Shown one piece after another: positions 18,410 through 53,293 of a DNA stretch of 64,000 bases. Where the stretch lies: positions 160,001 to 224,000 of IMG/VR virus record IMGVR_UViG_3300035208_002098. One strand, written 5' to 3'. The notes below the pieces were generated by a model that made no database searches, was not told where the DNA came from, and was given only the letters and a program-made list of their open reading frames with translations. Numbering within the stretch: position 1 is the stretch's first letter; each line of letters begins with the position of its first letter. The translations under genes and the position numbers were made by a program. This stretch comes from a virus. Lineage: Duplodnaviria; Caudoviricetes.

Positions 18410-18654
18410 TTATATAGTCATATTAATTGTAATGTGTTCTACTGGAGTTTCTGGTTGAACTAATAAATTATAGTAATTATCGTTTAACTCTGTTAATTCA
18501 TATCGAGAGTATAATAATCTAGATGGTGTAAACCCACATCACACATAACTGGAGTAGTTTGTACTGGAATATATGGCATCCAAACTAAACCTTCCGATAA
18601 TGTTGGGTTTGTAAAACTTAATTTTCTTCGTGATTTATAACCTAACCCAAACAT
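18410..18654 (-). CDS. FGxGYK-tagged capsid C-terminal fragment, split by a -1 frameshift
   Basis: Not in ORF track. Frame 0 (18654..18493): MFGLGYKSRRKLSF..GLVWMPYIPVQTTPV. Frame -1 continues FTPSRLLYSRY..NYY..VQPETPVEHITINMTI to the stop at 18410. Confidence 0.65.
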
Positions 18655-18848
18655 TAATTATTTTTTAAATCATTAAAAGCTTTAGCAAATTCACCAGAAC
18701 ATATAATAAAATTAGCACTACCATTCCTAGTTGCGTCATGCATTATTTTACAAGCTTTTTCAATTTTTTCTTGTAATTCTGACAATAATTTCTTTTGGTC
18801 TTTAAATGTTAAATCTTTTTTAGATTTATAACCTTCACCGAATGACAT
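18654..18848 (-). CDS. FGxGYK-tagged major-capsid-protein fragment
   Basis: MSFGEGYKSKKDLTF then LQEKIEKACKIMHDATRNGSANFIICSGEFAKAF, like the gp23 segment TRRGxGNFIICSxxVAxAL. Confidence 0.7.
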   Translation of the reverse strand: MSFGEGYKSKKDLTFKDQKKLLSELQEKIEKACKIMHDATRNGSANFIICSGEFAKAFNDLKNN

Positions 18849-18850
18849 AA

Positions 18851-19648
18851 TTAAAATCTTAAAAGCGAATAATGAATACCAATACCTATTTGTAACGATG
18901 GTTTTAAATTAGAACCAATACCAACACCTAAATAAGGACCAACACCCCATTTTTTCTGTACAACATATTTATTAAACACAGGGTTTTTTTTAGGGTCTAT
19001 AATAGCACCATCAATATTTAAAGCATTAAAACCCGGATAATCTGACCTAATAAAAATTTCTAAATTATCACCCTTTTCTCTTAAACCTGTAACTAAACTA
19101 AAATTAATTTCATCTTTTGTAATTAATGTTTGAGTTGGTATCACGGTTGAATCTTTTAATCTAAATTTACTTACACCTATAATATTTCTACTATTATTTG
19201 CACTATATATTGTATCGTGATGCCAAGCTAAACCATATTCACCATTAGGATAAATAATTACAGTATTTGTAATTTTAATGGTATCACCCGGTTTATTTTT
19301 AATACCTAATATAAATTTATTTAATTCATATACACGTCCTTTTTCTTTTTTAAGTTCTGAAGCTAAATCAGCATTAAGTTCTTTAAGACCATTTTTTTCT
19401 GTAATTAAAACATTTTTAGATGCTTCTAATTGACCAACTTTATTTTTAGATACTCTTACCGAATCAGATAACGCTTTATTATTTTGATTACTTATCTGTA
19501 AATCGTTTTTATTAGTACTACAGCTCCTAAGACTAAAAAACAATATTATACTCATACCAATTAACATAATTAATAAAGTATTACGTTGTTTATCAGTATT
19601 AAACCAACTAACAGCTTTTTTTTCAATTTCTTCTTTAATATCTGACAT
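18851..19648 (-). CDS. Membrane-anchored coiled-coil protein with C-terminal beta strands (spanin-like)
   Basis: TM/lipobox LRSCS, coiled coil, C-terminal WGVGPYLGVG..IGIGIHYSLLRF; near the amidase. Confidence 0.55.
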   Translation of the reverse strand: MSDIKEEIEKKAVSWFNTDKQRNTLLIMLIGMSIILFFSLRSCSTNKNDLQISNQNNKALSDSVRVSKNKVGQLEASKNVLITEKNGLKELNADLASELKKEKGRVYELNKFILGIKNKPGDTIKITNTVIIYPNGEYGLAWHHDTIYSANNSRNIIGVSKFRLKDSTVIPTQTLITKDEINFSLVTGLREKGDNLEIFIRSDYPGFNALNIDGAIIDPKKNPVFNKYVVQKKWGVGPYLGVGIGSNLKPSLQIGIGIHYSLLRF

Positions 19649-19665: not shown

Positions 19666-20052
19666 TTATAATTTTGGTTTATAATCGGTTGCTAACTTTT
19701 GAGCCCAATCATCATGCCAACGTTTATAGTAACCAGTTAAGTGTTGTAACACTTCCATTGAATCATCACTTAATTGCATATTATTAACATTAATATATAG
19801 GCCATTAATACCTTCTAATGTACATTGGAATTCCATATTTAAATCTGGTATTGTACCGGATAATACAGCGTTACGTGCATTAGGATATACCTTAAATACA
19901 TTAAATTGGACCGATTTTGATACAATTTGCATAAATTGTGCTTGTTCTTCTTTTAATTCAGGACCTGTAACATCAATAGCGTCATTCGTTGCGTTTTCTC
20001 TAATAATGTTTAACATTCTTTTAGTCATGTCATGTTCGTCTATATTATTCAT
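19666..20052 (-). CDS. Hypothetical protein
   Basis: 128-aa ORF. Confidence 0.75.
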   Translation of the reverse strand: MNNIDEHDMTKRMLNIIRENATNDAIDVTGPELKEEQAQFMQIVSKSVQFNVFKVYPNARNAVLSGTIPDLNMEFQCTLEGINGLYINVNNMQLSDDSMEVLQHLTGYYKRWHDDWAQKLATDYKPKL

Positions 20053-20674
20053 AGTTTTCTAATTTATTTTTAAATAATTCGTAATTAAAAGCCGGACTTA
20101 AATCCGTGCTCTGTCTTTGATAATTGCTTTTGAAAACAATACCACGATATTCATAAATATCATCAACTTTTGTGTTGTGTCCAATTGTTTGTAACGGTAT
20201 CTTAAATTTATTTGATAAATATTTCGAAAGATATATTAATGATTCAATTTGTTTATCTGTATACCCATCCCAATATTCATGTGTTCTCCAAAGTCTTTTA
20301 AACATAGTATCAATATCATTATATTCATTACCTACCCATGTTGTTACCACACCATTTAATACATCATTAATTAACCACCCATTATTTTCCATAACTACAG
20401 GAATTATATGGTCATTAAGATTTTTATTATTTAAAAAATCTGAAGTATATTTCGGGTCATAATGCTGATATATATTACCATCTTTACTTATAGTAAACGC
20501 AGCGGTTTTTTTATATTCACCATAATATCTAGTTAACCAACCATTATAATGGTTCATACCACTAGAAAATGAATTACCTACAACTATTTGTGACTTTTTT
20601 TTAGCCGACCTACGATAATTACATTTAGGTAATTTATAACTTACATCATCTATTTTAATATCAGTTTCAACCAT
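20045..20674 (-). CDS. N-acetylmuramoyl-L-alanine amidase-like protein
   Basis: FTISKDGNIYQ, YTDKQIESL, IGHN, DLSPAF; first Zn-binding His appears missing. Confidence 0.7.
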   Translation of the reverse strand: MVETDIKIDDVSYKLPKCNYRRSAKKKSQIVVGNSFSSGMNHYNGWLTRYYGEYKKTAAFTISKDGNIYQHYDPKYTSDFLNNKNLNDHIIPVVMENNGWLINDVLNGVVTTWVGNEYNDIDTMFKRLWRTHEYWDGYTDKQIESLIYLSKYLSNKFKIPLQTIGHNTKVDDIYEYRGIVFKSNYQRQSTDLSPAFNYELFKNKLENYE

Positions 20675-21675
20675 TATTTATCTCTAAAAAATATAGTTTT
20701 TTTCTCATTATGTGGTCCAACTCTCATGATTTGGTTATTATTTACTGGTGTAGACTTAATATTTTGGTGTGGTGTTACACTATCAGTTACGACTTCATTA
20801 CCAGATATTACCGGTTCTTCATCTACAACATCAGTAGAAACCTCATCCACAACATCGATAACATCATCAGATATTACCGGTTCTTCAATTATTTCTTCGG
20901 TTTGTTTAACAGGGATAAAAAAATCTTCATTAACGGGTTCAACTTCTTTTATATCATTAATAAATTCTCTCGCAATTTCTTTAGCTTCATCTTCCGACAT
21001 TTTACCAACAGGAACTTTGAATATTCTTTTTCCCGTACTAGAAAACCCCGGTTCTGGTTGTAACAAATTCATAATGTTTTCATCATTAAAATAATCAATT
21101 TCTTCAATATCTGATGATACACCCTTTGGTTCATCATTTATTGGTGTTTCGGGAAATGGTATTGGGTCAGTGGTTTCTACTTTTAATTCATCACCTTCTT
21201 TATCATTAAAGTTAACTAATAAATGTAAGAATGATAGTGATATTATTGGTAATAAAGCCCCAGCAAATGCTGCTAACCACCTTCTATGTCCATCAATATC
21301 ACCAGTATCTACCATACTTAACATACTGAATAATGGGTCAACTAATATAACCCAATCTTTAAATAATTTACTTGTTACATCAACATATTGAAATACAAAA
21401 AACATATTACCTATTAATTGAATAAATGTTACTATTATAAATGGTAGGTATATTGCTTTATTATTTTTAACCGCTAATCCAGCTAAAGCACTTAAAGCCG
21501 CTATTTCAATACCAACCGATAAATATATTGCCCAGCTCATCGGATTTGTCATTGAATACCAAGTTATAACGTGTGATATCGATACAAATGCAACGAATAA
21601 TATAGGTATAATATAAGATAATCTTATGATTGTCTTATAATTATTTGTGAACCAATTTCTAATACTACTATACAT
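20674..21675 (-). CDS. Four-TM membrane protein with an acidic tail containing a portal-like insert
   Basis: TM helices in residues 15-155; KRIFKVPVGKM..EDFFIPVK at 21033..20905. Confidence 0.75.
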   Translation of the reverse strand: MYSSIRNWFTNNYKTIIRLSYIIPILFVAFVSISHVITWYSMTNPMSWAIYLSVGIEIAALSALAGLAVKNNKAIYLPFIIVTFIQLIGNMFFVFQYVDVTSKLFKDWVILVDPLFSMLSMVDTGDIDGHRRWLAAFAGALLPIISLSFLHLLVNFNDKEGDELKVETTDPIPFPETPINDEPKGVSSDIEEIDYFNDENIMNLLQPEPGFSSTGKRIFKVPVGKMSEDEAKEIAREFINDIKEVEPVNEDFFIPVKQTEEIIEEPVISDDVIDVVDEVSTDVVDEEPVISGNEVVTDSVTPHQNIKSTPVNNNQIMRVGPHNEKKTIFFRDK

Positions 21676-21677
21676 AA

Positions 21678-21971
21678 TTATTTATTTTCTAATTTATTTA
21701 TTTCCTTCTCATTATCACTTTGACGATTAACATCTAATAATTTTCTATCCGTTGCTTGAATAAATCTATTTTCCGTTTTAAGACCTTCTATTTTAATTGT
21801 TTTATTGATTTTTTCTATAGCTACAGCATTTGAATCAATAGCTTTCTTATTCACTACAGATAGTTGTTCTATTTTACTATTTGTTGAACATGTTCTAAAG
21901 AACATGATAAATATTAATGGTACTATAATTACCATCCCATATTCATTTAAAAAATTTCTAAGTTTTTTCAT
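21678..21971 (-). CDS. Putative lipoprotein
   Basis: Hydrophobic N-terminus ending FRTCS. Confidence 0.6.
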   Translation of the reverse strand: MKKLRNFLNEYGMVIIVPLIFIMFFRTCSTNSKIEQLSVVNKKAIDSNAVAIEKINKTIKIEGLKTENRFIQATDRKLLDVNRQSDNEKEINKLENK

Positions 21972-27551: not shown

Positions 27552-28118
27552 TTACTTAATATTATTTAATTTGTTATGACATTCTCTAATAATAAAAGCG
27601 TCCCACATTGCATTATGTTTAATTTTTTTAAATTTACGTGGTATTGTAATTTCACCAACAAATTCTTCTCTTGAAATATCTGGGTCAATACCTTTTTCTC
27701 TAAAAGATGTACAAATATCAAATGGAATATAATATACGTTCTCAGGTATGTTAAATGCATGACCAAATATTTGGTTAAATAACATCCAATCATATGTTAA
27801 ACAATCTGACCACATTTCAATTTCCCCAAATTGGTCCAACCATTTAATTAATTCAATGTGTAATGAATCTATATCTCCAAAATGTTGTATATCACCCGTT
27901 TTTTTATCTTCTATTGTAGTCCAAGGGTCTTCTTTTAGTATTAGATTTTCTATTACATTTGTTTTAATCCATTCATCTATTTGTAATTCATCATAATCAA
28001 ATAACTCAGCATAAAATGTTTTACCACACTCAGATATTAAACCAATCGATATTAATGTTGTTTTTTGATGCAAACCAGTAAATTCGGTGTCAAAAAAAAT
28101 TTTTTTCTTAATAGTCAT
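27552..28118 (-). CDS. DEDDh 3'-5' exoribonuclease (Rv2179c-like)
   Basis: FFDTEFTGL, LISIGL, YDW, HNAMWDA. Confidence 0.85.
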   Translation of the reverse strand: MTIKKKIFFDTEFTGLHQKTTLISIGLISECGKTFYAELFDYDELQIDEWIKTNVIENLILKEDPWTTIEDKKTGDIQHFGDIDSLHIELIKWLDQFGEIEMWSDCLTYDWMLFNQIFGHAFNIPENVYYIPFDICTSFREKGIDPDISREEFVGEITIPRKFKKIKHNAMWDAFIIRECHNKLNNIK

Positions 28119-28488
28119 AATTTTTTATTTTAATTAGTTTTTCGTTATATATGTTATAAATTTTTATTATATTATTTTCAATATTATTTGTAAACTGTAC
28201 TTCGTAACGACCACATAATATTGATGATTCAGCATTATAATATTCAAACTCATAAAAAAGTGGAGCAAGAATATGATGAGTTAAAATATTAGTACCACCC
28301 ATTATACCACTACTCTTAAAAATTTTAGCTGATTGTTGATTTATTTTAGTTAATAAAGTTTTATTCCAATTCATTTGATTGTATAAATTATTACCAACCC
28401 ATTGTTTATAATCCCATGAATTTGAATCAAATAGAATATAATCATATTTAAAACTAAAATTTTTGGTTTTATAATCAATAAAATCCAT
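28108..28488 (-). CDS. Major-capsid-protein fragment-like protein
   Basis: WDY..WNKTLLTKINQQSAKIFKSSGIMGG..FEYY..LCGRYEV; aligns with 18654..18848. Confidence 0.65.
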   Translation of the reverse strand: MDFIDYKTKNFSFKYDYILFDSNSWDYKQWVGNNLYNQMNWNKTLLTKINQQSAKIFKSSGIMGGTNILTHHILAPLFYEFEYYNAESSILCGRYEVQFTNNIENNIIKIYNIYNEKLIKIKNYDY

Positions 28489-30875: not shown

Positions 30876-31289
30876 ATGAATTTAAGTAAATTACTTCGTG
30901 AACGATTATTAGAATATGATAATAATATATTAACTGTATATCATGGTACTAATTCAAAACATTTAAATAATATTTTGAATAATGGTTTAGTTGATAAAAC
31001 TAGTAATTATAATAGTGCTTCGTGGTATATGGTTTCAACTGATTTAAATAGTGCTTTATTTCACGCAACCCCACAAGATGAAGACGATGTTGTATATGTA
31101 ATTGAATTTAATATACCGGTAACCGATAATGATAGGTGGTTTGGGTTTCCATATTTATGGAAAGGTTATGTTAGAAATGATAAATCGACTTGGTTTGCGT
31201 TAAAACAACCATTAACTAAAAATATGATTAATAAGGTACATAAAATAGGTAAAGATATTTGGTTAAAACAGAAAAACGATAAGTATTAA
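30876..31289 (+). CDS. ADP-ribosyltransferase-fold protein with KLLRE leader
   Basis: VYHGT..ILNNGL..YMVSTDLNSALFHA; ATATTTATA at 30855. Confidence 0.6.
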   Translation: MNLSKLLRERLLEYDNNILTVYHGTNSKHLNNILNNGLVDKTSNYNSASWYMVSTDLNSALFHATPQDEDDVVYVIEFNIPVTDNDRWFGFPYLWKGYVRNDKSTWFALKQPLTKNMINKVHKIGKDIWLKQKNDKY

Positions 31290-31759
31290 AAAGTTAATAT
31301 ACAGTTTAATGGTTCAACGACTATCTTTATGGTTTGTATATCATCATTTTCATAAGATAATTCACCAAAATCTATCAATTTAATCCTTTTAACATTAATT
31401 AACCAATCTTCAATTACAACACCAGTCACATCCAAACTTTTAATATTAAAAGAAAATAAAGGTCCTCTAGTAAAAATACTCCTTTTTTTAGGTAATGAAT
31501 TATATAAATATTGTGACATAGATGGATGTATAGGGTCATACAATTCAATAATAATATCTTCCCATTTTTCACTATATTTAGGTTTACTTATACTAGATAT
31601 AAAAAATTCGTCAATATTCCTGAAATTAATTAGAAATCTACTAGTTCTTTTCGGTTCATACATTGGTTGTAATGGTATACCAGAAAATTTTGTCGTTGTA
31701 TCTCTAAAGAAACTAAATACTTTTGTAAACTTATATCCGGAACCAAATATTAGTCCCAT
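31286..31759 (-). CDS. FGxGYK-tagged divergent tail-tube-like protein
   Basis: MGLIFGSGYKFTKVFSF then YEPKRTSRF..LYDPIHPS..LDVTGVVIEDW..DFGELSY..CIL (gp19-like); lies among replication genes. Confidence 0.7.
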   Translation of the reverse strand: MGLIFGSGYKFTKVFSFFRDTTTKFSGIPLQPMYEPKRTSRFLINFRNIDEFFISSISKPKYSEKWEDIIIELYDPIHPSMSQYLYNSLPKKRSIFTRGPLFSFNIKSLDVTGVVIEDWLINVKRIKLIDFGELSYENDDIQTIKIVVEPLNCILTF

Positions 31760-50785: not shown

Positions 50786-53293
50786 TTATTTACAGTTAGT
50801 GAAAAATTTAGAATTAGCTTTATCAATTGCTGACTTACCCGGTATAATACCAAAATAAAAGAATAATGAGCCACCTCTCGGTATATTTAATGTACCTCTC
50901 AAATCTCTATATAAATTATAACCGCTATTTATATCATTGTATCCAGTATGTTTATAATAATAACCACTATTATCATAAAAATTATCCGTTTTACTTGTAA
51001 AATCATTCATGGTTAATCCCGGAGTATTCATACAAATAATTTGTTTTCTTAATGTTGTATCATTTATATTATCATTATCAATTAATGATTTACTATTATT
51101 ACCTAAATCAATACCTAATTCACAACAAGTATTAATATTGAATCTATTATTATTACTAACATCAAATCTAATACAACTTATATTATCAAAAAATAATGGT
51201 ACCATTGTTTGCTCATCAGTAGCATCAGTAGCATCATTAATATATTCTGGTAGTTGGTAAGTTGTTGGTATTAATGATTTATATATATTTGGTATACCAT
51301 CAGCATCACATTCTTTTATACTACCTAATAATAAAATATCTGTTGGGTACAATAGCCCATTATCATATAACGATGGGTAATACAACTCATCATTATATTT
51401 TTTAATAATACCATTATTTAAAGGTAGTGAACCATCATCATTATGTTCGTCAATACAAGTGTCTAGAATATATGCATTATTACAGTCAATATCTGGATTT
51501 GTCGCACAATCATAATCACAAAACTTTTCCTTTTCATTTTTTTTATGCTTATATTTTAATAAAGGAAAATATAACGAACCATTAATCCAATCATTATAAA
51601 AATCAAATTCAAATATATTTAAATAATCACCTAAAATTAATTTTAAACTATTTTTTAAATTTTCTTTGTCGTTAGGACTACCATCACAACCCGGTTTATA
51701 TAATACAGTATCTATAGTTATTGGTATACATTCAATTGTATTTACACTAAAATCTTTTGGTCCATCCCCACCAAATAATGAGGAAATTGCACCAATAATT
51801 TTATTAATAACATGTATTATATCGTTTATAGCACCAATAATTTTATTCATAGCCCAAATTATTGTACTATTTATTATAGCTATTGTATCAATTAATATTG
51901 TTATCATTGTACATATAACCATGAATAATGGGTTTATATCAGTATCAATTCTATTATATGGAAAAGGTGTGTGGCTACCACAATCATCAACATTTTTAAT
52001 ACCAACGAAATTTCTATTATTTTTATTATTATTATTAGGTTGATACCTAGTTATAAGGTTTTTAACAGTATATAATTTATTCCATTTTAATTCAACAAAA
52101 CTTTTATCATTAATTGTTGTTTCATCAAATGTATAATCAACGTCATTTATATTACTTGGGTTATTTGGTATTAAATAAGCTGCTCTAGTTCTTAATCTAC
52201 CTTCATCACCCGTTACATCCATACTTACCCTAAATCTAACTTCAGCTCTAGTTGGAACACCTTTATTAGGGTCTTCAGAAATAACTAAGTTACCAAATTC
52301 ATCAGTAATCATATAATCTAAATTCATAGGTATTTGATAACTCCATGTACCATCATCATCTATTACACGTCCACCTTCAACATCAAATCTTTCAACTTCA
52401 TTATCTATTGTTCTACGAATCATCTCAATTGTACCTTCACTAGTTACAGTTTCACATAAATCACCACTTTTTTTACGTGGTCTACAGTTTTTATTTATAC
52501 TATGTTTATCGTTATCACTAAATAAACTACCTATGAATATTGCGGAAGGTTGAAAAAAATAAGGTATATTAAAATCAACTCTAGATATCCCAACTTCACA
52601 ACTATCAACATCACCCCAAAATGGTTGAACATTGACACCTATATTAGATGATTTAACTTGAGTTAAAGAGTCTAAATTATTACCACTTTTAAATTTAGTT
52701 GGTGATTCAAATTGTTTTAATGTTGAACCTTGTCTAGTCATATCATAAGGCCTTTGTGTCAATAAACCTAAATCGGATAAGTCACAATCCATATGTAATA
52801 TTTGTTGACCGGTTGGTACACCAAATATCATATAATCACCAGAATTATTAGTTGTTGTTGTAAATTTATAATATTTTTCGAAAATTTCTAATAATATATC
52901 ATTATCTAGAATTTCTCGTTTAGTTGGCATGGTTCCAACTGGTACATGACATTCGTTCTGAGGTTCATTGGTTAATAAATTATATCTAACACCATTACTG
53001 TTTTTATCAGTAACAAATTCATATGGATATAAACCAATTATTTCTTGATTTTCTTTATCATCATCACTAATAGGTATAAAAACAGATATTTTAGCATTTG
53101 GTACACCAAATCCATTATTAGCTATTACTCTACCAGTAATAACACCATAATCAGCACAAAATTTACGATACACTTCATCCTGTGATATTTTTAATGATAA
53201 AATTTCAATAAAATCAAAATCTTGTTCAAGTTTAACTTTAATAAATTTATCACCACCACCGGGTGTTGTTCGTATTCTTATATTTTTATCCAT
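50786..53293 (-). CDS. Putative baseplate protein with internal hydrophobic helices
   Basis: 835 aa; N-terminal GRVIANNGFGVPNAKISVF beta-sandwich-like region. Confidence 0.6.
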   Translation of the reverse strand: MDKNIRIRTTPGGGDKFIKVKLEQDFDFIEILSLKISQDEVYRKFCADYGVITGRVIANNGFGVPNAKISVFIPISDDDKENQEIIGLYPYEFVTDKNSNGVRYNLLTNEPQNECHVPVGTMPTKREILDNDILLEIFEKYYKFTTTTNNSGDYMIFGVPTGQQILHMDCDLSDLGLLTQRPYDMTRQGSTLKQFESPTKFKSGNNLDSLTQVKSSNIGVNVQPFWGDVDSCEVGISRVDFNIPYFFQPSAIFIGSLFSDNDKHSINKNCRPRKKSGDLCETVTSEGTIEMIRRTIDNEVERFDVEGGRVIDDDGTWSYQIPMNLDYMITDEFGNLVISEDPNKGVPTRAEVRFRVSMDVTGDEGRLRTRAAYLIPNNPSNINDVDYTFDETTINDKSFVELKWNKLYTVKNLITRYQPNNNNKNNRNFVGIKNVDDCGSHTPFPYNRIDTDINPLFMVICTMITILIDTIAIINSTIIWAMNKIIGAINDIIHVINKIIGAISSLFGGDGPKDFSVNTIECIPITIDTVLYKPGCDGSPNDKENLKNSLKLILGDYLNIFEFDFYNDWINGSLYFPLLKYKHKKNEKEKFCDYDCATNPDIDCNNAYILDTCIDEHNDDGSLPLNNGIIKKYNDELYYPSLYDNGLLYPTDILLLGSIKECDADGIPNIYKSLIPTTYQLPEYINDATDATDEQTMVPLFFDNISCIRFDVSNNNRFNINTCCELGIDLGNNSKSLIDNDNINDTTLRKQIICMNTPGLTMNDFTSKTDNFYDNSGYYYKHTGYNDINSGYNLYRDLRGTLNIPRGGSLFFYFGIIPGKSAIDKANSKFFTNCK

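Follow-up and report, generated by a model that had tools for sequence, protein, structure and literature searches.

A portal clip-like segment in the acidic tail of a lysis-block membrane protein of a giant phage

Introduction

In bacteriophage T4, residues 279-358 of the portal protein gp20 make up the clip, the site to which the terminase and later the neck attach, and four of its residues (N291, M292, R295 and K296) point at the terminase (PMC4493910). The clip sheet mixes the strands of neighbouring subunits, and a synthetic peptide of gp20 residues 288-311 binds gp17 and inhibits packaging (PMC4493910). The T4 portal attaches to and assembles at the inner membrane with gp40/YidC (PMC9958956). 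Gpi of the Vibrio satellite PLE is, according to the abstract that describes it, a small protein that binds the large terminase of the rival and blocks packaging (PMC11417361). Several host systems sense portals, namely Avs4, Avs11 (10.64898/2026.01.04.697583), RAZR (PMC13017515) and SpbK (PMC13728456), which means that portal decoys could be favoured by selection. No published natural portal-fragment mimic or decoy was found in the literature searched, outside which most subscription papers lie.

Here we describe a clip-like segment in the tail of a membrane protein encoded in a stretch of 64,000 nucleotides (positions 160,001 to 224,000 of IMG/VR record IMGVR_UViG_3300035208_002098), hereafter the window, whose coordinates are used unless stated otherwise. 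The window is part of a 248-kb linear virus record (G000) of 27.7% G+C that is 70% complete. The nearest complete relative found (G001) is a 362-kb genome with terminal repeats that is colinear with the record, with a median protein identity of 51%, and has its head module (capsid, scaffold, protease, portal and terminase) at 242-252 kb. No portal gene was present in the 70% complete record, and the phage's own portal is unseen because the head module of G001 maps to the stretch missing from the record.

Results

The segment lies in a 333-aa membrane protein (20674..21675, minus strand) encoded directly upstream of an endolysin gene, in a holin-like position. Four hydrophobic segments (about residues 13-41, 49-70, 74-98 and 132-156) give four predicted transmembrane helices (21208..21639 (-); residues 13-156), as an earlier note on this DNA had placed them upstream of the segment. 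They are followed by an acidic, disordered and indel-rich tail (20677..21207 (-); residues 157-333) with three copies of an EP-x-x-S repeat, and the protein ends in a short basic C-terminus. The charges flanking the helices would, by the positive-inside rule, place both termini in the cytoplasm. An AlphaFold model gives a helical bundle to residue 161 and a low-confidence tail with one helix at residues 228-243, inside the segment. The carrier family comprises 4,608 homologues and is viral and conserved in phages; Pfam, PHROG and NCBIfam searches matched no named family, comparison of the membrane domain by structure returned only generic helical bundles and no specific fold, and family searches gave no match to a known holin family. 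Both holin-like traits, membrane helices and a gene adjoining the endolysin, are present.

In every locus examined, the block runs in the order sigma factor, small membrane protein, carrier gene, Amidase_2 endolysin, 128-aa gene and DUF6808 gene. In the window it includes, upstream of the carrier gene, a conserved protein of 97 aa with a hydrophobic segment near its N-terminus (21678..21971 (-)), then the Amidase_2 endolysin (20045..20674 (-); E 2.4e-10), whose start overlaps the stop of the membrane gene, and, as the last of the conserved block, a 265-aa DUF6808 protein (18851..19648 (-)) with a weak Rz-like spanin match. The core role of the carrier protein is probably lysis, with the insert probably dispensable for it. 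In some relatives (L008, 4768-4947; L203, 2618-2833; L204, 973-1173), a small lipoprotein-like gene that is absent from the window separates the membrane gene from the 97-aa-type gene; it could encode an outer spanin. A promoter scan found no excess over shuffles.

The 43 residues encoded at 20905-21033 (-) (residues 215-257 of the ORF), whose translation had been given correctly in the earlier note, sit after the first EP-x-x-S copy of the tail and fall into two blocks. Block 1 (20941..21033 (-); residues 215-245) corresponds to T4 gp20 residues 281-311, that is, a beta-strand, the tip and helix alpha6, and block 2 (20905..20931 (-); residues 249-257) to T4 gp20 residues 331-339, the T4 numbering being obtained through an alignment of kin portals to T4 gp20; the hairpin between the two, 19 residues in T4 gp20, is reduced to 3 in the window. 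The earlier note rightly located the segment in the acidic tail but described it as a break in E/P/D/V richness, which it is not, as the content is 42% in both the segment and the upstream tail (65% in the downstream tail); it is K/R content that marks the segment out (19%, versus 5% in the upstream and 0% in the downstream tail).

In profile searches, the top Pfam match of the segment was Portal_T4 (PF07230; E 0.0053; model positions 206-234 of 433; 16 bits, below the cut-off of 22.9) and its sole PHROG match was the portal family phrog_213 (E 0.038), matches that are weak when taken alone. The whole 333-aa protein gave no match to Portal_T4, and stem, wing and crown are absent, so it is not a whole T4-type portal. 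When the first nine sampled portals of related phages were aligned locally to the tail, the best alignment fell on the clip in all nine, with a gap of ~16 residues between the blocks. A two-block profile, built from 12 real portals with the blocks picked after the segment had been seen, scored 80.4 on the segment against a mean of 12.3 and a maximum of 37 for shuffles, none of 2000 reaching the segment score. Each block was also, on its own, the best match among the 65,000-76,000 positions of the genome's ORFs (block 2 was the best of 75,966), and block 2 follows block 1 after 3 residues, in the portal order. The second-best block-1 match in the genome (159478-159741) was rejected, as it is release-factor-like by eye and has no block 2; this region (G000 159478-160156 (-)), which spans the window start, holds two short ORFs of 87 and 53 aa that resemble, by eye, pieces of a release factor.

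The segment has diverged considerably, with an identity of at most 18/40 to any sampled portal, which together with a Logan contig that matches 7,002 bases with one mismatch argues against an assembly echo. It keeps 10 of 23 near-invariant portal positions. At the equivalents of T4 N291, M292, R295 and K296 the window has K, M, D and E, and kin portals have, at the first three, N, M or I, and mostly acidic residues; relative to kin portals, the terminase-facing tip has thus kept M and its acidic character and lost N. Used alone as a query against protein sets of 5.8 billion and 1.8 billion sequences, a phage collection and PDB sequences, a 48-mer retrieved only itself or repeats and no portal, because it is too short for the thresholds of those searches.

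The orthologue L123 carries the entire 57-aa clip in its tail, gapless and with the hairpin included, and this copy matches Pfam Portal_T4 above the cut-off (39.7 bits, E 3.3e-10; E 1.3e-16 in a second search). A single-sequence model of the L123 clip has the order strand-helix-strand-strand, and Foldseek did not return gp20 for it. That a low-complexity tail resembles a portal motif by chance, a reading to which the modest single-sequence E-values and the failure of the 48-mer to retrieve a portal might point, has a practically negligible probability in view of this whole clip in an orthologous tail and of the two blocks being the top-scoring sites in the genome. At the level of sequence, the segment is confirmed as a diverged piece of a T4-type portal clip domain, and both the portal-like origin and the two-motif pattern proposed in the earlier note hold.

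Clip pieces occur in other tails of the family in several arrangements. P0009 and P0029 have, like the window, block 1 and block 2 with the hairpin removed, the three differing in their short junctions; in P0174, from which the hairpin is also removed, block 2 precedes block 1; P0007 and P0011 have block 1 only; P0123, from G001, has the hairpin and block 2 ahead of block 1; and P0130 has the hairpin and block 2. The positions that are invariant among the inserts are the V-G tip and the D-F-x-P block of portals. Counted with three motifs that were written once the positives had been seen, clip pieces are found in about 9 of 36 tails of the window's subclade versus 0 of 262 tails of the sister group. 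The three closest orthologues (P0002, P0004 and P0005), the nearest of which is 88% identical over the membrane domain, have no recognisable copy either, in keeping with the graft described in the earlier note, and P0002 and P0004 may retain a few clip residues. On a tree of the membrane domain, the insert carriers do not group together (7 changes, of which at least 4 are forced), and a single clade of carriers, a group defined once a first tree had been seen, was rejected (p-AU 0.0002). This spread would fit either a single ancient insertion that was later lost many times or tails that were exchanged repeatedly.

A proline stands before the V-G tip in 7 of 8 inserts, at a position where kin portals have F or Y, and the same proline occurs in portals of other giant phages. 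In G001 it is present in the insert remnant and absent from the phage's own portal, and block 1 of P0174 scores best against the distant LR756500-type clip. The window copy is nearest (18/40) to portals of other giant phages, a set chosen by its own motif, and the L123 copy has its closest match (26/61) among portals from kin of this phage (L209-L211). These comparisons hint that the insert may be tuned towards non-self portals, and a single early substitution would explain the proline equally well. A distant homologue of the carrier (31% over 21-163) is encoded by the 462-kb huge phage LR756500.1 (L006); its tail has no insert, and the phage's own portal has a proline-type clip.

The inserts of the window, P0007 and L123 are mutually closer (BLOSUM 79-80) than any of them is to a sampled portal (at most 74), and they have common residues that are absent from kin portals; both observations suggest that they descend from one captured copy. 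Across the 29 codons of block 1, the window and L123 differ at 7 first, 5 second and 16 third positions (0.24/0.17/0.55 per position), as against 20, 11 and 41 across 105 codons of the membrane domain (0.19/0.10/0.39); 15 of the 29 residues are retained, whereas the flanks can hardly be aligned. For this pair, block 1 gives pN 0.25 and pS 0.61 (Fisher p 0.006), constraint is also indicated for P0007 versus L123 (p 0.017) and is not significant for the window versus P0007 (p 0.20), and most other, more eroded pairs have pN/pS near 1, all in tests that use small blocks, a motif-anchored alignment and near-saturated synonymous sites. A neutral simulation gave P 0.002 at a difference of 0.45 per site and 0.08 at 0.35, and separate captures from real portals could imitate the third-position excess. 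The comparisons suggest a constraint on the insert that is partial, lineage-dependent and much looser than that on a true portal.

The clip insert appears to be one instance of a genome-wide habit, given the capsid-fragment genes of this genome, at least four in number (window 18493-18654, 18654-18848 and 28108-28488; genome 126866-127399), and the capsid and portal-stem pieces found in the variable slot after the DUF6808 gene. In the window, this slot holds a 64-aa mini-gene with a major-capsid fragment (18654..18848 (-); 439-483 of the G001 capsid protein) and a 53-aa mini-gene with a C-terminal major-capsid fragment (18493..18654 (-)); L003-5 and L206 also have capsid fragments there, and the slot of L008 and L203 is occupied by a portal-stem fragment. 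Elsewhere in the window, a 126-aa gene (28108..28488 (-)) carries a major-capsid fragment (421-489 of the G001 capsid protein; E 1.7e-10).

Further fragments and related genes were observed around these. Outside the window, a 177-aa gene (G000 126866-127399 (-)) with a fragment of gp23 153-198 (E 2.8e-11) has a G001 counterpart at 52504-52992, and the 126-aa gene has a 179-aa counterpart in L004 and L005. The tandem mini-genes at 18493-18848 (-) begin with a common FGxGYK; the second is intact in L206 (69 aa), and the window's 53-aa version is frameshifted or recoded, since its capsid likeness moves to another frame after about residue 40. An FGxGYK leader is also found on a 157-aa, near-full-length tail-tube-like protein (31286-31759 (-); phrog_4542, E 9.5e-8) encoded outside the tail gene run. 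The mini-genes of L008 (7942-8115; 57 aa) and L203 (6003-6212; 69 aa) end with a portal stem-helix fragment (Portal_T4 281-307; E 0.01-0.03). In G001, a 249-aa gene (253424-254173 (-)) holds a 55-residue terminase ATPase fragment (E 3e-8) and a 77-aa gene (214738-214971 (+)) a capsid N-terminal fragment (E 1.4e-4).

Discussion

Our tentative reading, to which we give a probability of about 40%, is that the insert may be an accessory membrane-tethered bait for clip-binding proteins, either the terminase or neck of a rival phage or a host sensor. The four helices would tether the tail to the inner membrane on its cytoplasmic side, and the strand-helix-strand core would present the docking surface of a real portal for terminase and neck proteins, acting as a low-affinity bait that pulls a clip-binding protein off portals; cytoplasmic display, late expression and binding are steps that we infer. 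The likeliest binders would come either from another giant phage infecting the same cell (its terminase, neck or portal subunits) or from the host, as a sensor of a short portal motif, and the insert would be an accessory, fast-turnover mimic within the genome's wider set of virion-fragment genes. The bait reading is favoured because the part that has been retained is the surface to which terminase and neck are known to bind, and because the turnover is like that of conflict genes. The partial constraint, the recurrence of block 1 and block 2 without the hairpin in four tails and the proline of 7 of 8 inserts also speak for it; the segment covers the span of T4 288-311, the peptide that binds gp17, and the slot after DUF6808 turns over as expected of conflict genes. 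Against the bait reading stand the restriction of clip pieces to about 9/36 subclade tails, their absence from the three closest orthologues, the retention of just 10/23 near-invariant positions and the loss of the N291 equivalent, together with the non-significant constraint between the window and P0007, pN/pS near 1 in most other pairs and a third-position excess that separate captures could imitate. A wider version is unlikely, namely that giant phages of this clade use a tethered packaging-inhibitory clip peptide, retuned to the portals of other giant phages, which would capture at the membrane either the terminase or neck of a rival or a motif sensor of the host, as part of a fragment-based interference spanning portal and capsid pieces.

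The earlier note had proposed a membrane-tethered portal mimic, either a decoy for Avs4 or an anchor for prohead initiation. A portal-derived piece behind four helices is what we find, and mimicry would be a reasonable interpretation of it. An Avs4 decoy is disfavoured by mechanism, because Avs sensors envelop a folded core via broad interfaces (10.64898/2026.01.04.697583), a core that 43 residues cannot present; the segment comprises only the strand-helix-strand of the clip and not the folded portal core that Avs4/Avs11-type sensors need. The segment spans the terminase-binding peptide of T4, and the earlier note named terminase only among the partners to be checked. The packaging parts of a rival, or a sensor of a short motif, would fit better than Avs4, since RAZR requires a ring and sensors of the Avs type close around folded cores. 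Inhibition of RelA/SpoT by portals was rejected as a role of the insert, as the clip is dispensable for it and a ring is needed (PMC13483052).

Possible, though doubtful, is that the insert is a decaying passenger, a copy of part of the lineage's portal gene that entered a tolerant tail, rich in repeats, by illegitimate recombination and is now eroding there without doing anything specific. The copies are scattered, permuted and partial, with a single clade rejected and at least 4 changes, the possible remnants in the closest orthologues would point to loss by deletion, and the insert sits after the tail repeat unit in the window and L123 alike. The proximity of the L123 copy to kin portals agrees with such an origin, and the preference for the clip may be a detection bias, only conserved pieces being recognisable. 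However, the third-position excess between the window and L123 approaches that of the membrane domain, the 15 kept residues of block 1 lie between flanks that barely align, the same minimal core has been retained several times, and neutrality fits the simulation poorly at the higher divergence, though less so at the lower. Equally concerned with the terminase and neck site, but improbable, is a coupling of lysis to packaging, in which the carrier would act as a holin, or regulate one, and free terminase or neck protein of the same phage would bind the tail copy and tune lysis time; the carrier gene abuts the endolysin in every locus seen, and four helices and a short basic C-terminus would suit it, whereas the putative holin has no family match, the insert is missing from most orthologues and would compete with the phage's own packaging, and the G001 remnant differs from the G001 portal at the motif.

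It is quite improbable that the segment has been co-opted as a structural element, a small helix or generic binding patch unrelated to portal partners: it contains the tail's only predicted helix of moderate confidence, and the conserved common residues include non-portal ones, but the invariant positions (the V-G tip and the D-F-x-P block) extend beyond a helix face alone. As to the anchor, a membrane protein that nucleates, by exchanging strands with portal clips, the prohead or the portal ring on the inner membrane would recall the assembly of the T4 portal on the inner membrane with gp40 and YidC (PMC9958956) and a clip sheet composed of strands of neighbouring subunits (PMC4493910). This is very improbable, because such an essential role fits poorly with absence from 262/262 sister-group tails and from the closest orthologues; in addition, the carrier gene belongs to the lysis block, which in the complete relative is separated by about 145 kb from the head module, and clip strands in a closed ring would already be paired.

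If the bait reading is true, the most conserved assembly surfaces of phages have given rise to natural fragments that act as decoys or dominant negatives, and such fragments would reveal the epitopes recognised by hosts and rival phages. The case is unusually testable, as a conserved carrier comes with natural alleles in which the clip is whole (L123), reduced to its minimal core (window, P0009 and P0029), present as permuted pieces (P0123 and P0174) or absent (P0002, P0004 and P0005), and a T4 in vitro packaging assay exists in which the matching peptide already inhibits. If the insert is neutral, it still documents the capture of pieces of core virion genes into disordered tails. It also warns that weak portal or capsid matches in the annotation of giant phages can be fragments.

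Compared with the described systems, gp40 and YidC of T4 are chaperones with no description as a portal copy, whereas the insert of the window protein is accessory and patchy. The targets of portal sensors also differ from it, in that Avs needs wrapped folded cores and RAZR needs a ring, and a piece of 43 residues supplies neither. Gpi of PLE would have the same role as that proposed for the rival-phage version of the bait (PMC11417361); Gpi is satellite-encoded and tested, and its abstract gives no description of a portal copy. The closest counterpart is the T4 gp20 clip (PF07230), with which the window piece has in common the sequence of strand, tip, helix and strand (T4 281-311 and 331-339). 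Unlike that clip, it is a natural piece of 43 residues without stem, wing or crown, unable to form a ring, which has no hairpin, has lost the N291 equivalent and is fused behind four membrane helices. For what a clip piece can do, the T4 peptide 288-311 is the direct precedent (PMC4493910).
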